From a virus (Duplodnaviria; Heunggongvirae; Uroviricota; Caudoviricetes): a DNA stretch of 11,329 bases. The stretch is taken from IMG/VR virus record IMGVR_UViG_2648501466_000015. The stretch is one strand, 5' to 3'. Positions 2,517 through 11,329 of this stretch are shown one piece after another. Within the stretch, counting starts at the first letter, position 1. The number at the start of each line of letters is the position of its first letter. Under the pieces are notes generated by a model, which searched no databases, was not told where the DNA came from, and saw only the letters and a list, made by a program, of their open reading frames with translations. The translations under genes and the position numbers were made by a program.

Positions 2517-5500
2517 ATGGGTAAAGGAAGCAGTAAGGGGCATACCCCGCGCGAAGCGAAGGACAACCTGAAGTCCACGCAGTTGCTGAGTGTGATCGAT
2601 GCCATCAGCGAAGGGCCGGTTGAAGGTCCGGTGGATGGATTAAAAAGCGTGCTGCTGAACAGTACGCCAGTGCTGGACAGTGAGGGGAATACCAACATCT
2701 CCGGCATCACGGTGGTGTTCCGTGCCGGTGAGCAGGAGCAGACACCGCCGGAGGGGTTTGAATCCTCCGGCTCCGAGACGGTGCTGGGTACGGAAGTGAA
2801 ATATGACACGCCGATCACCCGCACCATTACGTCTGCAAACATCGACCGTCTGCGCTTTACCTTCGGCGTGCAGGCACTGGTGGAAACCACCTCAAAGGGG
2901 GACCGGAATCCGTCGGAAGTCCGCCTGCTGGTTCAGATCCAGCGTAATGGTGGCTGGGTGACGGAAAAAGACATCACCATTAAGGGCAAAACCACCTCGC
3001 AGTATCTGGCCTCGGTGGTGGTGGGTAACCTGCCGCCGCGCCCGTTCAATATACGGATGCGCAGGATGACGCCGGACAGCACCACAGACCAGCTGCAGAA
3101 CAAAACGCTCTGGTCGTCATACACCGAAATCATCGATGTGAAACAGTGCTACCCGAACACGGCACTGGTCGGCGTGCAGGTGGATTCGGAGCAGTTCGGC
3201 AGCCAGCAGGTGAGCCGTAATTATCATCTGCGCGGGCGCATTCTGCAGGTGCCGTCGAACTATAACCCGCAGACGCGGCAATACAGCGGTATCTGGGACG
3301 GAACGTTTAAACCGGCATACAGCAACAACATGGCCTGGTGTCTGTGGGATATGCTGACCCATCCGCGCTACGGCATGGGGAAACGTCTTGGTGCGGCGGA
3401 TGTGGATAAATGGGCGCTGTATGTCATCGGCCAGAATTGCGACCAGTCGGTGCCGGACGGCTTTGGCGGCACGGAGCCGCGCATCACCTGTAATGCCTGG
3501 CTGACCACACAGCGCAAGGCGTGGGATGTGCTCAGTGATTTCTGCTCGGCGATGCGCTGTATGCCGATATGGAACGGGCAGACGCTGACGTTCGTGCAGG
3601 ACCGACCATCAGATAAGGTGTGGACCTATAACCGCAGTAATGTGGTGATGCCGGATGATGGCGCGCCGTTCCGCTACAGCTTCAGCGCCCTGAAGGACCG
3701 CCATAATGCCGTTGAGGTGAACTGGATTGACCCGAACAACGGCTGGGAGACGGCGACAGAGCTTGTGGAGGACACGCAGGCCATTGCCCGTTACGGTCGT
3801 AACGTCACGAAGATGGATGCCTTTGGCTGTACCAGCCGGGGGCAGGCACACCGCGCCGGGCTGTGGCTGATTAAAACGGAACTGCTGGAAACGCAGACCG
3901 TGGACTTCAGCGTGGGTGCGGAAGGGCTTCGCCATGTACCGGGCGATGTCATTGAAATCTGCGATGATGACTATGCCGGTATCAGCACCGGCGGGCGCGT
4001 GCTGGCGGTGAACAGCCAGACCCGGACGCTGACGCTCGACCGTGAAATCACGCTGCCATCCTCCGGTACCACGCTGATAAGCCTGGTTGACGGAAGTGGC
4101 AATCCGGTCAGCGTGGAGGTCCAGTCCGTCACCGACGGCGTGAAGGTAAAAGTGAGCCGTGTTCCTGACGGCGTTGCCGGATACAGCGTGTGGGGGCTGA
4201 AGCTGCCGACGCTGCGCCAGCGACTGTTCCGCTGCGTGAGTATCCGTGAGAACGACGACGGCACGTATGCCATCACCGCCGTGCAGCATGTGCCGGAAAA
4301 AGAGGCCATCGTGGATAACGGGGCGCACTTTGACGGCGACCAGAGCGGCACGGTGAATGGTGTCACGCCGCCAGCGGTGCAGCACCTGACTGCCGAAGTC
4401 ACCGCAGACAGCGGGGAATATCAGGTACTGGCGCGCTGGGACACACCGAAGGTGGTGAAGGGCGTGAGCTTCCTGCTCCGTCTGACCGTAACAGCGGACG
4501 ACGGCAGTGAGCGGCTGGTCAGCACGGCCCGGACGACGGAAACCACATACCGCTTCACACAACTGGCGTTGGGGAACTACAGGCTGACAGTCCGGGCGGT
4601 AAATGCGTGGGGACAGCAGGGCGATCCGGCATCGGTATCGTTCCGGATTGCCGCACCGGCAGCGCCGTCTCGGATTGAGCTGACACCGGGCTATTTTCAG
4701 ATAACCGCCACGCCGCATCTTGCGGTTTATGACCCGACGGTACAGTTTGAGTTCTGGTTCTCGGAAAAACGGATTGCGGATATCAGGCAGGTTGAAACCA
4801 GCGCGCGTTATCTTGGTACGGCACTGTACTGGATAGCCGCCAGTATCAATATCAAACCGGGCCATGATTATTATTTTTACGTTCGCAGTGTGAACACCGT
4901 TGGCAAATCGGCATTCGTGGAGGCTGTCGGTCAGCCGAGTGATGATGCATCAGGCTATCTGGATTTTTTCAAAGGCGAGATAGGGAAAACCCATCTGGCT
5001 CAGGAGCTGTGGACGCAGATTGATAACGGTCAGCTTGCGCCTGACCTGACTGAAATCAGGACGTCCATAACGGATGTCAGCAATGAAATAACACAGACCG
5101 TCAATAAGAAACTGGAAGACCAGAGTGCAGCGATCCAGCAGATACAGAAGGTTCAGGTTGATACAAATAATAACCTGAACAGCATGTGGGCAGTGAAGCT
5201 GCAGCAGATGCAGGACGGACGCCTTTATATTGCGGGTATCGGTGCCGGTATTGAGAACACCCCTGACGGCATGCAGAGTCAGGTGCTGCTGGCAGCAGAC
5301 AGGATTGCGATGATTAATCCTGCGAATGGCAACACAAAGCCGATGTTTGTTGGTCAGGGCGATCAGATATTCATGAATGAAGTGTTCCTGAAACGCCTGA
5401 CGGCCCCCACCATTACCAGCGGCGGTAATCCTCCGGCATTTTCCCTGACATCAGACGGGAGACTGACGGCGAAAAATGCGGATATCAGTGGCAGTGTGAA

Positions 5501-6014
5501 TGCGAACTCAGGAACGCTCAACAATGTCACGATTAACCAGAACTGTACGATTAAGGGCATGCTGGAGGCGACCCAGGTCAGAGGAGATTTCGTTAAAGCT
5601 GTATCAAAAGCCTTCCCGAAAAAAGTCGGTACGTGGGGTAACACGGAAACACCAAACGGGACGGTTACAGTCACCATCAGCGATGATCATAACTTTGACC
5701 GCCAGATTATTATTCCGCCCATTATTTTTAACGGTATAGCGTATGACGATCCGGGGAGCGGAAATAACCCAGGAGGCACGCGATACACGGGTTATGGTTT
5801 TGAAGTTCGCAAAAACGGCGTATTAATCGCATCCAGAGAAACTAAAGGGGCCATTCCCGGTAGTTACAGTGCAGTTATTGATATGCCGAGTGGCAGGGGA
5901 AGCGTCACTCTGGAGTTTAAGATTTTCCAGAAAGGCAATCAGGGGGCAGGCAATATCACCGACTGTACGGTGATTGTGACCAAAAAAGCCGCTTCCGGCA
6001 TCAGTATTCGTTGA
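2517..6014 (+). CDS. J: Host specificity protein J (tail tip central fibre), 1165 aa
   Basis: ORF 2517..6014 with GAGG at 2511-2514 before the ATG. The N-terminal ~800 aa ([34 protein letters not shown]...) are recognised as near-identical to lambda gpJ, including a fibronectin-III-like segment (~4370-4660). The C-terminal ~330 aa diverge from lambda J as I remember it. Confidence 0.95.
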
Positions 6015-6031
6015 AATATTTATAACCCCAA

Positions 6032-6059
6032 TAAAGGGCGTCAGGAATGACGCCTTTTT
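6032..6059 (+). terminator. Rho-independent terminator downstream of J (tJ-like)
   Basis: GGCGTCA (6036-6042) / loop GGAA / TGACGCC (6047-6053) followed by TTTTTT (6054-6059); preceded by AAA, so possibly bidirectional. Confidence 0.7.
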
Positions 6060-6084
6060 TATTGCAGAAAAGCGAGAGGTAATT

Positions 6085-6684
6085 ATGCGTAAAGTTTGTG
6101 CAGCAATTTTGTCCGCAGCCATTTGTCTGGCCGTATCCGGTGCGCCTGCATGGGCGTCTGAACATCAGTCCACGCTGAGCGCGGGGTATCTTCATGCCTC
6201 GACGAACGTCCCCGGCAGCGATGATCTGAACGGGATTAACGTGAAATACCGTTATGAGTTTACGGACACACTGGGGCTGGTGACGTCATTCAGCTATGCA
6301 GGAGACAAGAATCGCCAGCTGACCCGTTACAGCGATACCCGCTGGCATGAAGATTCCGTTCGTAACCGCTGGTTCAGCGTAATGGCGGGGCCGTCTGTGC
6401 GCGTGAATGAATGGTTCAGCGCGTATGCGATGGCGGGTGTAGCTTACAGCCGTGTGTCGACTTTCTCCGGGGATTATCTTCGCGTAACTGACAACAAGGG
6501 GAAAAAGCACGATGTGCTGACCGGAAGTGATGACGGTCGCCACAGCAACACGTCTCTGGCGTGGGGGGCTGGCGTGCAGTTTAACCCGACCGAATCCGTG
6601 GCCATTGATATTGCTTATGAAGGCTCCGGCAGTGGTGACTGGCGCACTGACGGTTTCATCGTGGGTGTCGGTTATAAATTCTGA
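6085..6684 (+). CDS. lom: Lom-like outer membrane beta-barrel protein (Ail/Lom/PagC family), 199 aa with predicted signal peptide
   Basis: ORF 6085..6684 with GAGAGG (6073-6078) upstream. N-terminal signal peptide MRKVCAAILSAAICLAVSGAPAWA; C-terminus AIDIAYEGSGSGDWRTDGFIVGVGYKF recognised as identical to the lambda Lom C-terminus; internal GINVKYRYE and SAYAMAGVA conserved, predicted loops divergent. Confidence 0.88.
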   Translation: MRKVCAAILSAAICLAVSGAPAWASEHQSTLSAGYLHASTNVPGSDDLNGINVKYRYEFTDTLGLVTSFSYAGDKNRQLTRYSDTRWHEDSVRNRWFSVMAGPSVRVNEWFSAYAMAGVAYSRVSTFSGDYLRVTDNKGKKHDVLTGSDDGRHSNTSLAWGAGVQFNPTESVAIDIAYEGSGSGDWRTDGFIVGVGYKF

Positions 6685-6710
6685 TTAGCCAGGTAACACA
6701 GTGTTATGAC

Positions 6711-6737
6711 AGCCCGCCGGTTCAGGCGGGCTTTTTT
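6711..6737 (+). terminator. Rho-independent terminator downstream of lom
   Basis: AGCCCGCC (6711-6718) / loop GGTTCA / GGCGGGCT (6725-6732) followed by a T-run to 6737. Lies only ~12 nt upstream of the stf start codon. Confidence 0.7.
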
Positions 6738-6748
6738 GTGGGGTGAAT

Positions 6749-9700
6749 ATGGCAGTAAAGATTTCAGGTGTACTGAAAGACGGCACAGGAAAACCGGTAC
6801 AGAACTGCACAATCCAGCTGAAAGCAAAACGTAACAGCACCACGGTGGTGGTGAACACGCTGGCCTCAGAAAATCCGGATGAAGCCGGGCGTTACAGCAT
6901 GGACGTTGAGTACGGGCAGTACAGCGTTATTCTGTTGGTGGAGGGATTCCCGCCGTCACATGCCGGGACCATCACCGTGTATGAAGATTCCCGACCCGGT
7001 ACGCTGAATGATTTTCTCGGTGCCATGACGGAGGATGATGCCCGTCCTGAGGCACTGCGCCGTTTTGAACTGATGGTGGAAGAGGTGGCGCGTAACGCGT
7101 CCGCGGTGGCACAGAACACGGCAGCCGCGAAGAAGTCAGCCAGCGATGCCAGCACATCAGCCCGTGAGGCGGCAACCCATGCGACTGATGCTGCAGGCTC
7201 AGCACGCGCAGCCAGCACGTCAGCCGGACAGGCCGCGTCGTCGGCTCAGTCAGCATCTTCCAGCGCAGGAACGGCATCAACAAAGGCCAGTGAAGCATCG
7301 AAAAGTGCTGCTGCTGCAGAGTCCTCAAAAAGCGCGGCAGCTACCAGTGCCGGTGCGGCGAAAACGTCAGAAACGAATGCGGCAGCGTCACAACAATCAG
7401 CAGCCACTTCTGCATCCGCCGCGACCACGAAGGCGTCAGAAGCAGCCACCTCAGCCCGGGATGCGGCGGCCTCAAAAGAGGCAGCGAAATCATCAGAAAC
7501 GAACGCATCATCAAGCGCCAGTAGTGCCGCTTCCTCGGCAACGGCGGCAGGCAATTCCGCGAAGGCGGCAAAGACGTCTGAGACAAACGCCAGGTCTTCT
7601 GAAACGGCAGCGGGACAGAGCGCCTCGGCTGCGGCAGGCTCAAAAACAGCGGCTGCGTCGTCTGCCAGTGCCGCGTCAACAAGTGCCGGGCAGGCCTCAG
7701 CCAGTGCCACCGCCGCCGGAAAATCGGCAGAAAGCGCCGCATCGTCTGCTTCAACAGCCACAACGAAGGCTGGCGAAGCCACTGAACAGGCCAGCGCAGC
7801 AGCAAGGTCTGCTTCCGCAGCGAAGACATCCGAGACGAACGCGAAAGCGTCGGAAACCAGCGCAGAATCCTCAAAAACGGCTGCCGCATCGTCCGCCAGT
7901 TCGGCGGCGTCATCGGCATCATCGGCGTCTGCTTCAAAAGATGAGGCGACCAGACAAGCGTCCGCAGCGAAGGGCAGCGCCACGACGGCATCCACGAAGG
8001 CGACAGAGGCAGCTGGCAGTGCGACGGCGGCAGCACAGAGCAAAAGTACGGCGGAATCCGCGGCAACGCGCGCCGAGACAGCGGCAAAACGGGCAGAGGA
8101 TATTGCATCCGCCGTGGCGCTTGAGGATGCAAGTACGACGAAAAAGGGGATAGTACAGCTCAGCAGTGCGACCAACAGTACGTCTGAAACGCTGGCGGCA
8201 ACGCCAAAGGCAGTAAAATCAGCCTATGACAATGCAGAGAAACGTCTGCAGAAAGACCAGAACGGCGCTGATATACCCGATAAGGGACGCTTCCTGAACA
8301 ACATTAACGCGGTCAGTAAAACAGACTTTGCTGATAAGCGTGGTATGCGTTATGTGCGGGTTAACGCTCCTGCAGGTGCAACATCTGGAAAATATTACCC
8401 TGTTGTTGTTATGCGTTCTGCTGGCTCAGTAAGCGAACTGGCATCAAGGGTCATTATCACCACGGCAACGCGAACCGCAGGCGATCCGATGAATAACTGC
8501 GAGTTTAACGGATTTGTTATGCCTGGTGGCTGGACTGACAGGGGGCGTTATGCTTATGGAATGTTCTGGCAATATCAAAACAATGAACGAGCCATCCACT
8601 CAATAATGATGAGTAATAAGGGCGATGATTTGCGCTCTGTGTTCTATGTTGATGGCGCTGCTTTCCCTGTTTTTGCGTTTATCGAAGATGGCCTGTCAAT
8701 ATCCGCACCTGGTGCTGATCTCGTTGTTAATGATACGACCTATAAGTTTGGGGCAACAAATCCGGCGACTGAATGTATCGCGGCGGACGTTATCCTTGAT
8801 TTTAAGAGTGGGCGTGGTTTTTATGAGTCTCATTCGTTAATCGTTAACGATAACTTGTCGTGCAAAAAACTTTTTGCCACAGACGAAATTGTAGCGCGTG
8901 GTGGTAATCAGATTCGAATGATAGGTGGGGAGTATGGGGCATTATGGCGTAATGATGGCGCTAAAACTTACCTGCTGCTTACCAATCAAGGTGATGTTTA
9001 TGGTGGCTGGAATACATTAAGACCGTTTGCTATTGATAACGCAACCGGCGAACTGGTTATTGGAACCAAACTGTCCGCAAGTCTGAACGGTAATGCATTA
9101 ACAGCAACAAAGCTGCAAACGCCAAGACGGGTTTCTGGTGTTGAGTTTGATGGTTCCAAAGATATTACTTTAACCGCCGCGCATGTGGCTGCTTTTGCCA
9201 GAAGGGCAACGGATACATATGCCGATGCGGATGGTGGCGTTCCCTGGAATGCCGAATCAGGCGCTTATAATGTCACCCGCTCTGGCGACAGCTATATTCT
9301 GGTTAACTTCTATACCGGAGTCGGAAGTTGCCGGACCTTGCAGATGAAGGCGCATTACAGAAATGGTGGTCTGTTCTACCGTTCTTCAAGAGACGGTTAT
9401 GGTTTTGAGGATGACTGGGCAGAAGTTTATACCTCGAAAAATCTTCCACCAGAAAGCTACCCAGTCGGCGCACCAATCCCGTGGCCATCAGATACCGTTC
9501 CGTCTGGTTATGCCCTGATGCAGGGGCAGACTTTTGACAAATCTGCTTACCCGAAACTTGCAGCCGCTTATCCGTCAGGCGTGATCCCTGATATGCGTGG
9601 CTGGACGATTAAGGGCAAACCTGCCAGTGGTCGGGCCGTATTGTCTCAGGAACAGGACGGCATTAAATCGCATACCCACAGCGCCAGCGCATCCAGTACA

Positions 9701-10147
9701 GATTTGGGGACGAAAACCACATCGTCGTTTGATTACGGCACTAAATCCACGAATAACACTGGTGCGCATACCCATAGTTTAAGTGGCAGCACGAATGCAG
9801 CTGGTAATCACAGCCATAGAGATGGCCGTCGATTTAACCCCAGTGTTTTTAAAGATACTTATCAATATGGTTATACAAGCTCAGGTCAAAATACCTGGGG
9901 TGTACAAGGCTCAGTAGGTATGTCTACGGGGTGGTTAGCGAATACCAGTACAGATGGTAATCATAGCCATTCACTGTCCGGCACAGCAGCATCTGCAGGT
10001 GCACACGCGCATACTGTCGGTATTGGTGCTCATACGCACTCCGTTGCGATTGGTTCACATGGACACACCATCACCGTTAACGCTGCTGGTAACGCGGAAA
10101 ACACCGTCAAAAACATCGCATTTAACTATATTGTGAGGCTTGCATAA
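6749..10147 (+). CDS. stf: Side tail fibre protein Stf, ~1132 aa from ATG 6749 (an in-frame GTG at 6743 would add 2 codons)
   Basis: Long ORF. N-terminus [34 protein letters not shown] recognised as lambda Stf; long Ala/Ser/Thr-rich low-complexity shaft (~7090-8110); C-terminal region with seven H-x-H motifs (HTH, HSH, HAH, HGH) ending [19 protein letters not shown], as in lambda Stf and Rac StfR. Confidence 0.9.
7090..8110 (+). repeat. Imperfect tandem low-complexity coding repeats (Ala/Ser/Thr-rich, recurring KTSETNA / SSASSA units) inside stf
   Basis: Seen directly: recurring DNA units such as AAAACGTCAGAAACGAATGC (~7358), TCATCAGAAACGAACGC (~7490), AAGACGTCTGAGACAAACGC (~7573), AAGACATCCGAGACGAACGC (~7824). 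The GC-rich repeat biases codons so that long spurious ORFs open in other frames on both strands. Confidence 0.6.
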
Positions 10148-10722
10148 TGGCATTCAGAATGAGTGAACAACCACGGACCATAAAAATTTATAATCTGCTG
10201 GCCGGAACTAATGAATTTATTGGTGAAGGTGACGCATATATTCCGCCTCATACAGGTCTGCCAGCAAACAGTACCGATATTGCACCACCAGATATTCCTG
10301 CTGGCTTTGTGGCTGTTTTCAACAGTGATGAGGCATCGTGGCATCTCGTTGAAGATCATCGGGGTAAAACGGTTTATGACGTGGCTTCCGGCGACGCGTT
10401 ATTTATTTCTGAACTCGGTCCGTTACCGAAAAATGTTACCTGGTTATCGCCGGAAGGGGAGTTTCAGAAGTGGAACGGCACAGCCTGGGTGAAGGATACG
10501 GAAGCAGAAAAACTGTTCCGGATCCGGGAGGCGGAAGAAACAAAAAATAACCTGATGCAGGTAGCCAGTGAGCATATTGCGCCGCTTCAGGATGCTGCAG
10601 ATCTGGAAATTGCAACGGAGGAAGAAATCTCGTTGCTGGAAGCATGGAAAAAGTATCGGGTATTGCTGAACCGTGTTGATACGTCAACTGCACAGGATAT
10701 TGAATGGCCAGCACTGCCGTAG
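10147..10722 (+). CDS. tfa: Tail fibre assembly protein Tfa (fibre chaperone), 191 aa
   Basis: ORF 10147..10722, start overlapping stf stop (TAATG at 10145-10149). Protein [34 protein letters not shown]... recognised as lambda Tfa / TfaR-TfaQ family. Confidence 0.9.
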
Positions 10723-10819: not shown

Positions 10820-11230
10820 TTATATGTCAGGTGTCTGAAGTTTTGCTTTGGCTCTTAAAATGGTTTGCCGCGAGGTTTTGAATTCCCGGGCAATGGCACT
10901 TATACTTACACCTGACTTAATTCGTTCGAATACCGCCTGTTTCTGTTCTTCATTTAACACAGGTGGTCGACCAAAACGTTTCCCTGCGCCGCGGGCTCTT
11001 ACTATCCCGGAATGAGTGCGTTCAAGTAAAAGGTCTCGTTCAAATTCAGCGACTGCTGAAATTACTTGCATCATCATTTTTCCTGTTGGACTGGTCAGGT
11101 CAATGCCCCCCAATGCTAAGCAATGCACTCTGATACCTGTTTCGGTCAGTTGTTCCACTGTTTTCCTGATATCCATTGCATTACAACCAAGGCGATCCAG
11201 TTTTGTCACAATCAATTGATCACCACATTT
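10820..11230 (-). pseudogene. pin: Serine-recombinase DNA invertase (Pin/Gin/Hin family), 5'-truncated: only the C-terminal ~136 codons remain; catalytic N-terminal domain absent
   Basis: Minus-strand frame reads (KCGDQ)[85 protein letters not shown]...KLQTPDI, recognised as the C-terminal two-thirds of PinR/PinQ-type invertases. The only start in the ORF track is a TTG at 11215; the frame closes with a stop at 11261-11263 and no frame upstream encodes the catalytic-serine motif. Confidence 0.8.
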
Positions 11231-11329
11231 TGATCCTACCCACGTAATATGGACACAGGCCTAAGCGAGGTTCTGGTTTTCAAATTGTTCCGGACTGAGG
11301 CCGCCACACCAACTGTGCCGCCGCCACCG
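11231..11329 (-). mobile_element. Terminal ~100 bp of an IS3-family insertion sequence (IS3-like right end), inserted into pin; element continues beyond the window
   Basis: Plus strand from 11231 reads TGATCCTACCCACGTAATATGGACACAGGCCTAAGCGAGGTTC..., which I recognise as the IS3 terminal inverted repeat (5'-TG terminus) and adjacent sequence. Recognition is from memory, not a database search. Confidence 0.75.
11261..11329 (-). CDS. IS3-family transposase OrfB, C-terminal 22 codons plus stop (3' partial fragment; rest outside window)
   Basis: Minus-strand frame reads RWRRHSWCGGLSPEQFENQNLA then stop (TAG, complement of 11261-11263), the conserved C-terminal tail of IS3-family OrfB transposases, ~30 nt from the element terminus. 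Confidence 0.65.
   Translation of the reverse strand, partial: RWRRHSWCGGLSPEQFENQNLA

Follow-up and report, generated by a model that had tools for sequence, protein, structure and literature searches.

The gene lom lies between the host-specificity gene J and the side tail fiber gene stf of a lambdoid phage, with a hairpin on each side, and the question is whether it is an autonomous cargo gene carried for the benefit of the bacterial host (a moron) or an ordinary member of the late tail operon. The first of these was proposed in an initial annotation of this DNA, which described a lom-like gene insulated by two intrinsic terminators. What the locus holds is very probably a common allele of the lambdoid prophage gene lom, the 434 type, placed in the late tail operon, with the export and the Q-override transcription that are proposed below. 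As judged from the sequence, the textbook label of a moron with its own promoter that acts as a host-fitness factor seems only partly supported.

The lom Locus and Its Known Relatives

The window (the whole stretch of 11,329 nucleotides that was analyzed) belongs to a lambdoid late operon, of which it covers the tail-tip end, with the gene order L, K, I, J, lom, stf, and tfa. The genes from J onward are the following.

2517-6014, + strand: J, tail tip/host-specificity protein of 1165 aa (Pfam Phage-tail_3, Ig_J, Phage_Tail_Tip, and Ig_GpJ_C)
6085-6684, + strand: lom, 199-aa precursor of an Ail/Lom outer-membrane beta-barrel protein of the 434 type ("class A"; Pfam, PHROG, AlphaFold, and Foldseek)
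6749-10147, + strand: stf, side tail fiber of 1132 aa counted from the ATG at 6749 (Pfam phage_tail_N, Gp34_trimer, and Collar)
10147-10722: tfa

The J protein matches lambda J in the PDB at E = 0, and at its 3′ end the gene shares 96.5% identity with phage 434. The protein has a 434-type C-terminal receptor-binding tail and a total length of 1165 aa, against 1132 in lambda and 1137 in 434. At least four distinct J tail types are found upstream of lom in related loci. Stf is a mosaic of a lambda-type N-terminus, T4 gp34-like and Mu S-like segments, and a T4 gp37-like C-terminal tip; its PDB matches are the tip of T4 gp37 (residues 901-1132 with 2xgf, E = 5e-85) and the N-terminus of lambda Stf. 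About 100 nt downstream of tfa, a minus-strand open reading frame (10820-11329) that continues past the end of the window has matches to the Resolvase (serine recombinase) and HTH_7 domains, as do invertases of the Pin/Gin/Cin kind; no second fiber cassette and no convincing inverted crossover repeats for such an invertase were found within the window. Five open reading frames opposite to or overlapping lom (5823-6122, 6001-6195, 6286-6543, 6685-6858, and 6527-6688) are without family match and were rejected as spurious.

The locus is nearly ubiquitous in E. coli. Of 5,426 complete E. coli genomes, 4,708 match positions 6020-6745, and the median copy number is two per genome; the Lom protein clusters have 24,859 and 6,993 member sequences. 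Among phages, the 1-kb region is 100% identical to PhiR34_1 and PhiR68_2, 99.8%-99.9% identical to Kati, ev243, and mEp332, and 96.5% identical to 434 and lambda h434; it matches 243 phage records, annotated "Lom." The lom genes of 434 (CPT_434_22), mEp460 (mEp460_019), and PhiR34_1/PhiR68_2 have the same 199 aa and the same J-lom-stf context, at 96.5%-100% DNA identity. Rho-independent terminators are already annotated on each side of lom in mEp460 (JQ182728) and 434 (OL657226). Public annotation completely covers the gene with its family and position, as well as the two terminators. Phage 434 differs from the window in the length of J (1137 aa instead of 1165) and in the length of the downstream stf, and otherwise in nothing of substance. 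As a discovery the locus thus matters little, since it is ordinary, already annotated, and matched in most E. coli genomes.

Lambda Lom (NP_040601; PDB 9wso chain C) belongs to the same family, occupies the same position between J and stf, and is likewise preceded by a hairpin and a Shine-Dalgarno sequence and followed by a hairpin. It is longer (206 aa instead of 199) and differs in the signal peptide, strands beta1 and beta3, and loops L1-L3. Its upstream hairpin is unlike the one of the window in sequence and is weaker.

Predicted Export and Barrel Fold of the lom Product

The initial annotation had described a 199-aa Lom homolog with its own Shine-Dalgarno sequence, a cleavable signal peptide, and a beta-barrel, and all of these points are borne out, the signal peptide and the barrel as predictions. 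The translation of the open reading frame at 6085-6684 (+ strand) agrees exactly with that protein, and matches in Pfam, PHROG, and the PDB concur. The product matches Pfam PF06316 (Ail_Lom) over the entire profile (1-199 of 199; E = 1e-122, 407.7 bits for a cut-off of 23) and PHROG 108, "Lom outer membrane protein," at 1e-110. The top PDB sequence match is lambda Lom (9wso chain C, E = 7e-51), followed by OmpX of E. coli and Ail of Yersinia at ∼1e-18 over the whole mature chains. A structure with full-length lambda Lom has therefore been solved (9wso, in the 2026 PDB sequence file); this entry does not appear among the PDB sequence matches of J or of Stf, and no mention of its code was found in the literature searched. 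The 5′ end of the gene contains two elements.

6074-6079, + strand: Shine-Dalgarno sequence GAGAGG, 5 nt 5′ of the lom ATG, kept in the listed upstream variants of related loci
6085-6156, + strand: predicted signal peptide (residues 1-24), with signal peptidase I cleavage predicted after A-W-A

The call of the signal peptide uses sequence rules only: MRK is followed by a 17-residue hydrophobic core and by PAWA, with the predicted cleavage before S. The alignment of the mature OmpX and Ail chains starts at Lom residues 25-29, and residues 2-18 form a separate helix in the AlphaFold model. At the other end, the protein terminates in …GVGYKF, that is, in the aromatic Phe expected for insertion into the outer membrane.

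Topology prediction had been set beforehand as the refuting test for the barrel, and AlphaFold gives eight strands (residues 29-34, 49-58, 63-81, 86-106, 111-135, 141-166, 172-181, and 190-198). The model was made from an alignment of 38 Lom sequences with 42%-91% identity and has a pLDDT of 77.8 and a pTM of 0.66; this deeper alignment was adopted in place of a shallow one (20 sequences, at least 72% identical) that gave an unusable pLDDT of 32.5. The best Foldseek matches, in a PDB copy that does not include 9wso, are Ail (3QRA/3QRC) and OmpX (1QJ9), with a probability of 1.00 and target-normalized TM-scores of 0.69-0.72. In the model, beta3/beta4 and beta5/beta6 are long hairpins. Because of these hairpins, and because Ail and OmpX are the best matches, the segments read as loops L2 and L3 are predicted to be outward extensions of the hairpins, as in OmpX and Ail.

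Ail and OmpX belong to the same Pfam family or clan as Lom. The alignment shows that, relative to them, Lom has insertions of ∼7 and ∼17 residues, which lengthen the surface hairpins L2 and L3. PagC and Rck of Salmonella are 8-stranded virulence-associated barrels like Ail and OmpX. All four are encoded on chromosomes or plasmids, whereas Lom is encoded inside a phage late operon.

In conclusion, the profile match, the predicted barrel, the signal peptide, and the C-terminal Phe confirm the lom product as a member of the Ail/Lom family. Lom would be exported via Sec and probably cleaved after Ala24, and it would then enter the outer membrane as an 8-stranded barrel of the Ail/OmpX type, with two long surface beta-hairpins (L2 and L3) and GVGYKF as its signal. 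Homology and modeling make an outer-membrane barrel with variable hairpins the most likely form of the protein.

Hairpins and Transcription of lom

Three hairpins of similar kind are found between the genes of this part of the operon.

2476-2503, + strand: terminator-like hairpin between I and J (AACCGCC-TCCG-GGCGGTT with a T-rich tail), annotated in 434
6037-6060, + strand: Terminator 1 (T1), 7-bp stem GGCGTCA/TGACGCC, GGAA loop, and T6; annotated in mEp460 and 434
6711-6737, + strand: Terminator 2 (T2), 8-bp stem AGCCCGCC / GGCGGGCT, 6-nt loop, and T6; annotated in mEp460 and 434

The two hairpin-plus-T-run sites said to bracket lom are indeed present as T1 and T2. In T1, the stem pairs 6037-6043 with 6048-6054, including five GC pairs, and the T-run occupies 6055-6060; its fold has −17.6 kcal/mol (z = −4.5), and none of 200 shuffles is as stable. 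In T2, the stem pairs 6711-6718 with 6725-6732, including seven GC pairs, the T-run occupies 6732-6737, and the fold has −19.1 kcal/mol (z = −2.6). The pattern scan reported T1 on the minus strand only, because its 5′ flank is A-rich as well, and by its sequence the site looks bidirectional. T1 and T2 are the top two sites of the scan of the whole window, but such sites are not enriched there (16 found for 11.0 ± 3.6 expected). Independent support was therefore sought in related loci.

This related set consists of 218 lom loci from viral contigs, all retrieved by Lom similarity, so that it covers only loci having lom. Of the 41 distinct upstream sequences, 40 have a hairpin with a T-run at the position of T1, and the downstream hairpin, at the position of T2, is almost invariant. 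Among 21 distinct variants of T1, three stem pairs show compensatory changes (G-C to A-U, C-G to U-A, and A-U to U-A). Pairing is kept in 96.6% of cells and falls to 29%-56% if the 3′ partner is shifted along; the covariation score was not attained in any of 500 shuffles. T2 is paired in 96.4% of cells (21 variants); its single-sided changes mostly yield G-U, and no two-sided pair change occurs among these variants, so that T2 shows conservation only. The Rfam scan of 5700-7000, by E-value, returned only sub-threshold chance matches overlapping the terminators.

By their anatomy of a GC-rich hairpin followed by T6, and by the maintenance of this structure in evolution, T1 and T2 are putative intrinsic terminators. 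One could instead take the hairpins for chance palindromes, for stem-loops that stabilize or process mRNA, or for protein-binding sites, as would fit the lack of enrichment in the window, the lack of two-sided changes in T2, and the fact that the terminator status of both sites is a prediction. This is very improbable, because at both sites the T6 follows the GC-rich stem at once, both hairpins lie exactly in intergenic gaps and are kept across more than 200 loci, and the pairing of T1 survives through compensatory changes. A role in stabilizing 3′ ends would, moreover, be compatible with termination.

The proposed insulation of lom by T1 and T2 is a weaker point, as such bracketing is not peculiar to this gene. 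The hairpin between I and J, which the pattern scan missed, is comparable (−16.6 kcal/mol, z = −4.1), and the record of phage 434 annotates terminators also between I and J and after tfa. Hence, such hairpins seem to punctuate the late operon in general and, by analogy with lambda, would be read through under Q antitermination. Lambda itself has hairpins at both positions around lom: the counterpart of T1 differs in sequence and folds only weakly (−9.7 kcal/mol, z = −1.0), whereas the counterpart of T2 is nearly the same.

The proposed dependence of stf on read-through is sound. T2 had been placed ∼12 nt before this gene; it is indeed adjacent, with an exact gap of 11 nt from the T-run to the ATG at 6749. 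As this gap is too short to hold a promoter, stf must be transcribed by read-through.

For lom, the promoter search that was suggested with the initial annotation returned nothing recognizable near the gene, either by consensus scan or by eye. The scan, which could miss a weak or activator-dependent promoter, found no sigma-70-like promoter near lom on the + strand, the nearest + strand matches being at 521 and 9270. Between the T-run of T1 and the ATG of lom there are 24 nt, and these contain the Shine-Dalgarno sequence. Elements picked by eye (TATAAC at 6021-6026, TTGAAA at 6011-6016, and the T-run region) give no acceptable pairing of −35 and −10, and no promoter is claimed. A motif, (T)TTATAACCC, lies at 6017-6029 between the stop codon of J and T1 and is kept across different J tail types; the 207-aa class of Lom has TTTATTAACCC in its place. 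The motif resembles a −10 element and is without a −35 partner.

Transcription of lom has been reported in lambda lysogens (PMC7067206; PMC1151598), whereas one microarray study did not detect it in a lambda lysogen (PMC2147009). Little is known on the promoter of lom (PMC2147009), and expression of the gene rises strongly late in infection (PMC12366544; PMC9836094). Reviews count lambda Lom among moron products (PMC3594210) and describe it as expressed from the prophage (PMC7067206). Under the definition of morons applied here (Juhala et al. 2000; Cumby et al. 2012, PMC3594210), lom does have its own downstream terminator, T2 at 6711-6737. Its base composition is not deviant: the GC content is 0.54-0.57 in lom, 0.48-0.59 in the 3′ part of J, and 0.51-0.60 in the 5′ part of stf.

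The moron label thus stands as far as the literature on lambda lom and the downstream T2 are concerned; GC content and bracketing do not support it, and no promoter was recognized. Taken strictly, it would make lom a self-contained cassette that has a promoter and a terminator of its own, is expressed from the repressed prophage, benefits the host through adhesion or serum resistance, and is insulated by T1 and T2. The reviews, and a terminator directly 3′ of the gene, speak for such a cassette. We consider it possible but rather doubtful, because the scan shows no sigma-70-like promoter near lom, where only 24 nt separate the T-run of T1 from the ATG, because the GC content is ordinary, because the same kind of terminator stands between I and J, and because published work gives no mapped promoter for lom (PMC2147009).

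If lom is instead simply the 434-type allele of the late operon, transcription may be pictured from lambda as follows. Intrinsic terminators would sit in the I/J, J/lom, and lom/stf gaps of the late tail operon I-J-lom-stf-tfa. During lytic growth, Q-modified RNA polymerase would ignore them, and lom and stf would be made with the other tail genes. In the lysogen, the terminators would shield the tail genes from stray transcription, and any expression of lom would be weak and driven by an unmapped promoter. The window contains neither a Q gene nor a PR′ promoter, and both the read-through by Q and the lysogen expression of lom are inferred from lambda. For the latter, this follows from the lack of a recognizable promoter: lysogen expression of the window gene is only borrowed from lambda. 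The locus has some modest interest in this respect, since the lysogen promoter of lom has never been mapped and the sequence has no obvious candidate.

Allelic Variation and Candidate Functions

The predicted loops of Lom had been described as divergent from lambda Lom and the membrane strands as conserved. The two proteins are 45% identical overall. Loops L1-L3 have 17 of 79 residues in common (22%), compared with 54 of 79 (68%) in the cores of the membrane strands, and to this extent the description is right. It fails for L4 (GSGSGDWR), where all eight residues are identical, and for beta1 and beta3, which have diverged too.

The conserved Ail/Lom C-terminus needs a similar qualification. 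The protein does end in the family's GVGYKF, and its last 27 residues are those of lambda Lom, but the likeness to lambda has in part another origin, as indicated by the following feature.

6600-6610, + strand: mosaic junction with respect to lambda, inside lom (DNA identity in 30-nt windows of the window-lambda alignment)

DNA identity to lambda is ∼40%-65% upstream of ∼6600 and rises to ∼93% beyond it, a level that holds across T2 as far as the 5′ part of stf. Since the junction is sharp, part of the C-terminus in common with lambda reflects a common recombination module. The final 27 codons of the gene are carried along with the stf module.

Proteins of the 199-aa class vary mostly in three segments, namely the signal peptide's hydrophobic core, residues 37-42 (L1), and residues 73-81 (tip of L2), and the variants of these segments reassort among alleles. 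Hypervariability of L1 and of the L2 tip is what one would expect of a host-exposed surface protein, and in this it favors the autonomous, host-beneficial cassette considered above. The predicted surface loop L4 (6628-6651, residues 182-189, within EGSGSGDWRTD) is nearly invariant in all Lom classes examined, including Lom of Salmonella and Citrobacter, in contrast with the hypervariable L1-L3. Its conservation suggests a contact of some conserved kind.

Host adhesion or serum resistance and a block of phage adsorption are both candidates for the selected function of Lom. Classically, lambda Lom is assigned a role in adhesion to buccal cells, and serum resistance is proposed by analogy with Ail, PagC, and Rck (PMC9836094; PMC3594210). 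In a study of 2025, over-expression of lambda Lom gave strong protection from lambda-vir but none from T7, and the authors propose a late role of benefit to the phage, namely the exclusion of further adsorption (PMC12366544). In lysogens, under laboratory conditions, Lom does not block lambda-vir (PMC12366544).

On the latter proposal, Lom would chiefly be made late and, much like Cor or Llp of other phages, would hide or perturb the receptor of its own phage, so that progeny or superinfecting phages fail to adsorb to infected cells and debris. Besides the over-expression phenotype, it would account for the strong late rise of lom expression (PMC9836094; PMC12366544) and for the place of lom immediately 3′ of J. 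The association of Lom variants with J tail types, with a Cramer's V of 0.63-0.68 among 149 distinct J-plus-Lom haplotypes, points in the same direction. These haplotypes were, however, sampled by Lom similarity, and the two genes are less than 100 bp apart; physical linkage alone can therefore explain the association. An exclusive coupling of Lom class and J tail was rejected, since class A Lom, including the variant of the window, occurs with three J tail types. The lack of a block in lysogens also counts against such a role, and the published effect comes from over-expression and is possibly indirect (PMC12366544). PADLOC-DB 2.0 contains no family matching Lom at E ≤ 0.01, in a library that dates from 2023 and hence predates the 2025 report. 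Taken together, we find a mainly phage-serving Lom rather unlikely.

A more specific version would have the hairpins of L1 and the L2 tip tuned to whichever receptor the neighboring J is specific for, with Lom as an allele-specific block of adsorption like Cor or Llp. Cor (phi80, N15, and T1) and Llp (T5) are receptor-blocking proteins of other siphophages, encoded next to receptor-binding genes; they are small lipoproteins with a fold unrelated to Lom. The 434-type J is reportedly OmpC-dependent. The likeness of Lom to Cor and Llp lies in the position of lom directly beside the host-specificity gene and in the anti-lambda phenotype of over-expressed lambda Lom (PMC12366544). If the version were true, the 434-type allele would protect infected cells and debris against phages with a 434-type J, and the association of J with Lom (Cramer's V about 0.65) would reflect function and not just linkage. 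We regard it as improbable. Should the block of lambda by Lom hold at native levels and be allele-specific, the variation of Lom would document how phages compete with one another, and it would not be a trait of host virulence.

Among the database Lom proteins, many have in-frame deletions of 14-16 residues around the turn between beta4 and beta5, and one has a duplication of 14 residues at that turn; the proteins concerned are P0146, P0141, P0062, P0100, and P0014. P0146, one of those with a deletion, is 191 aa long and occurs on 899 contigs. Such deletions should break the 8-stranded barrel, and these proteins may be decayed copies or products of repeat slippage.
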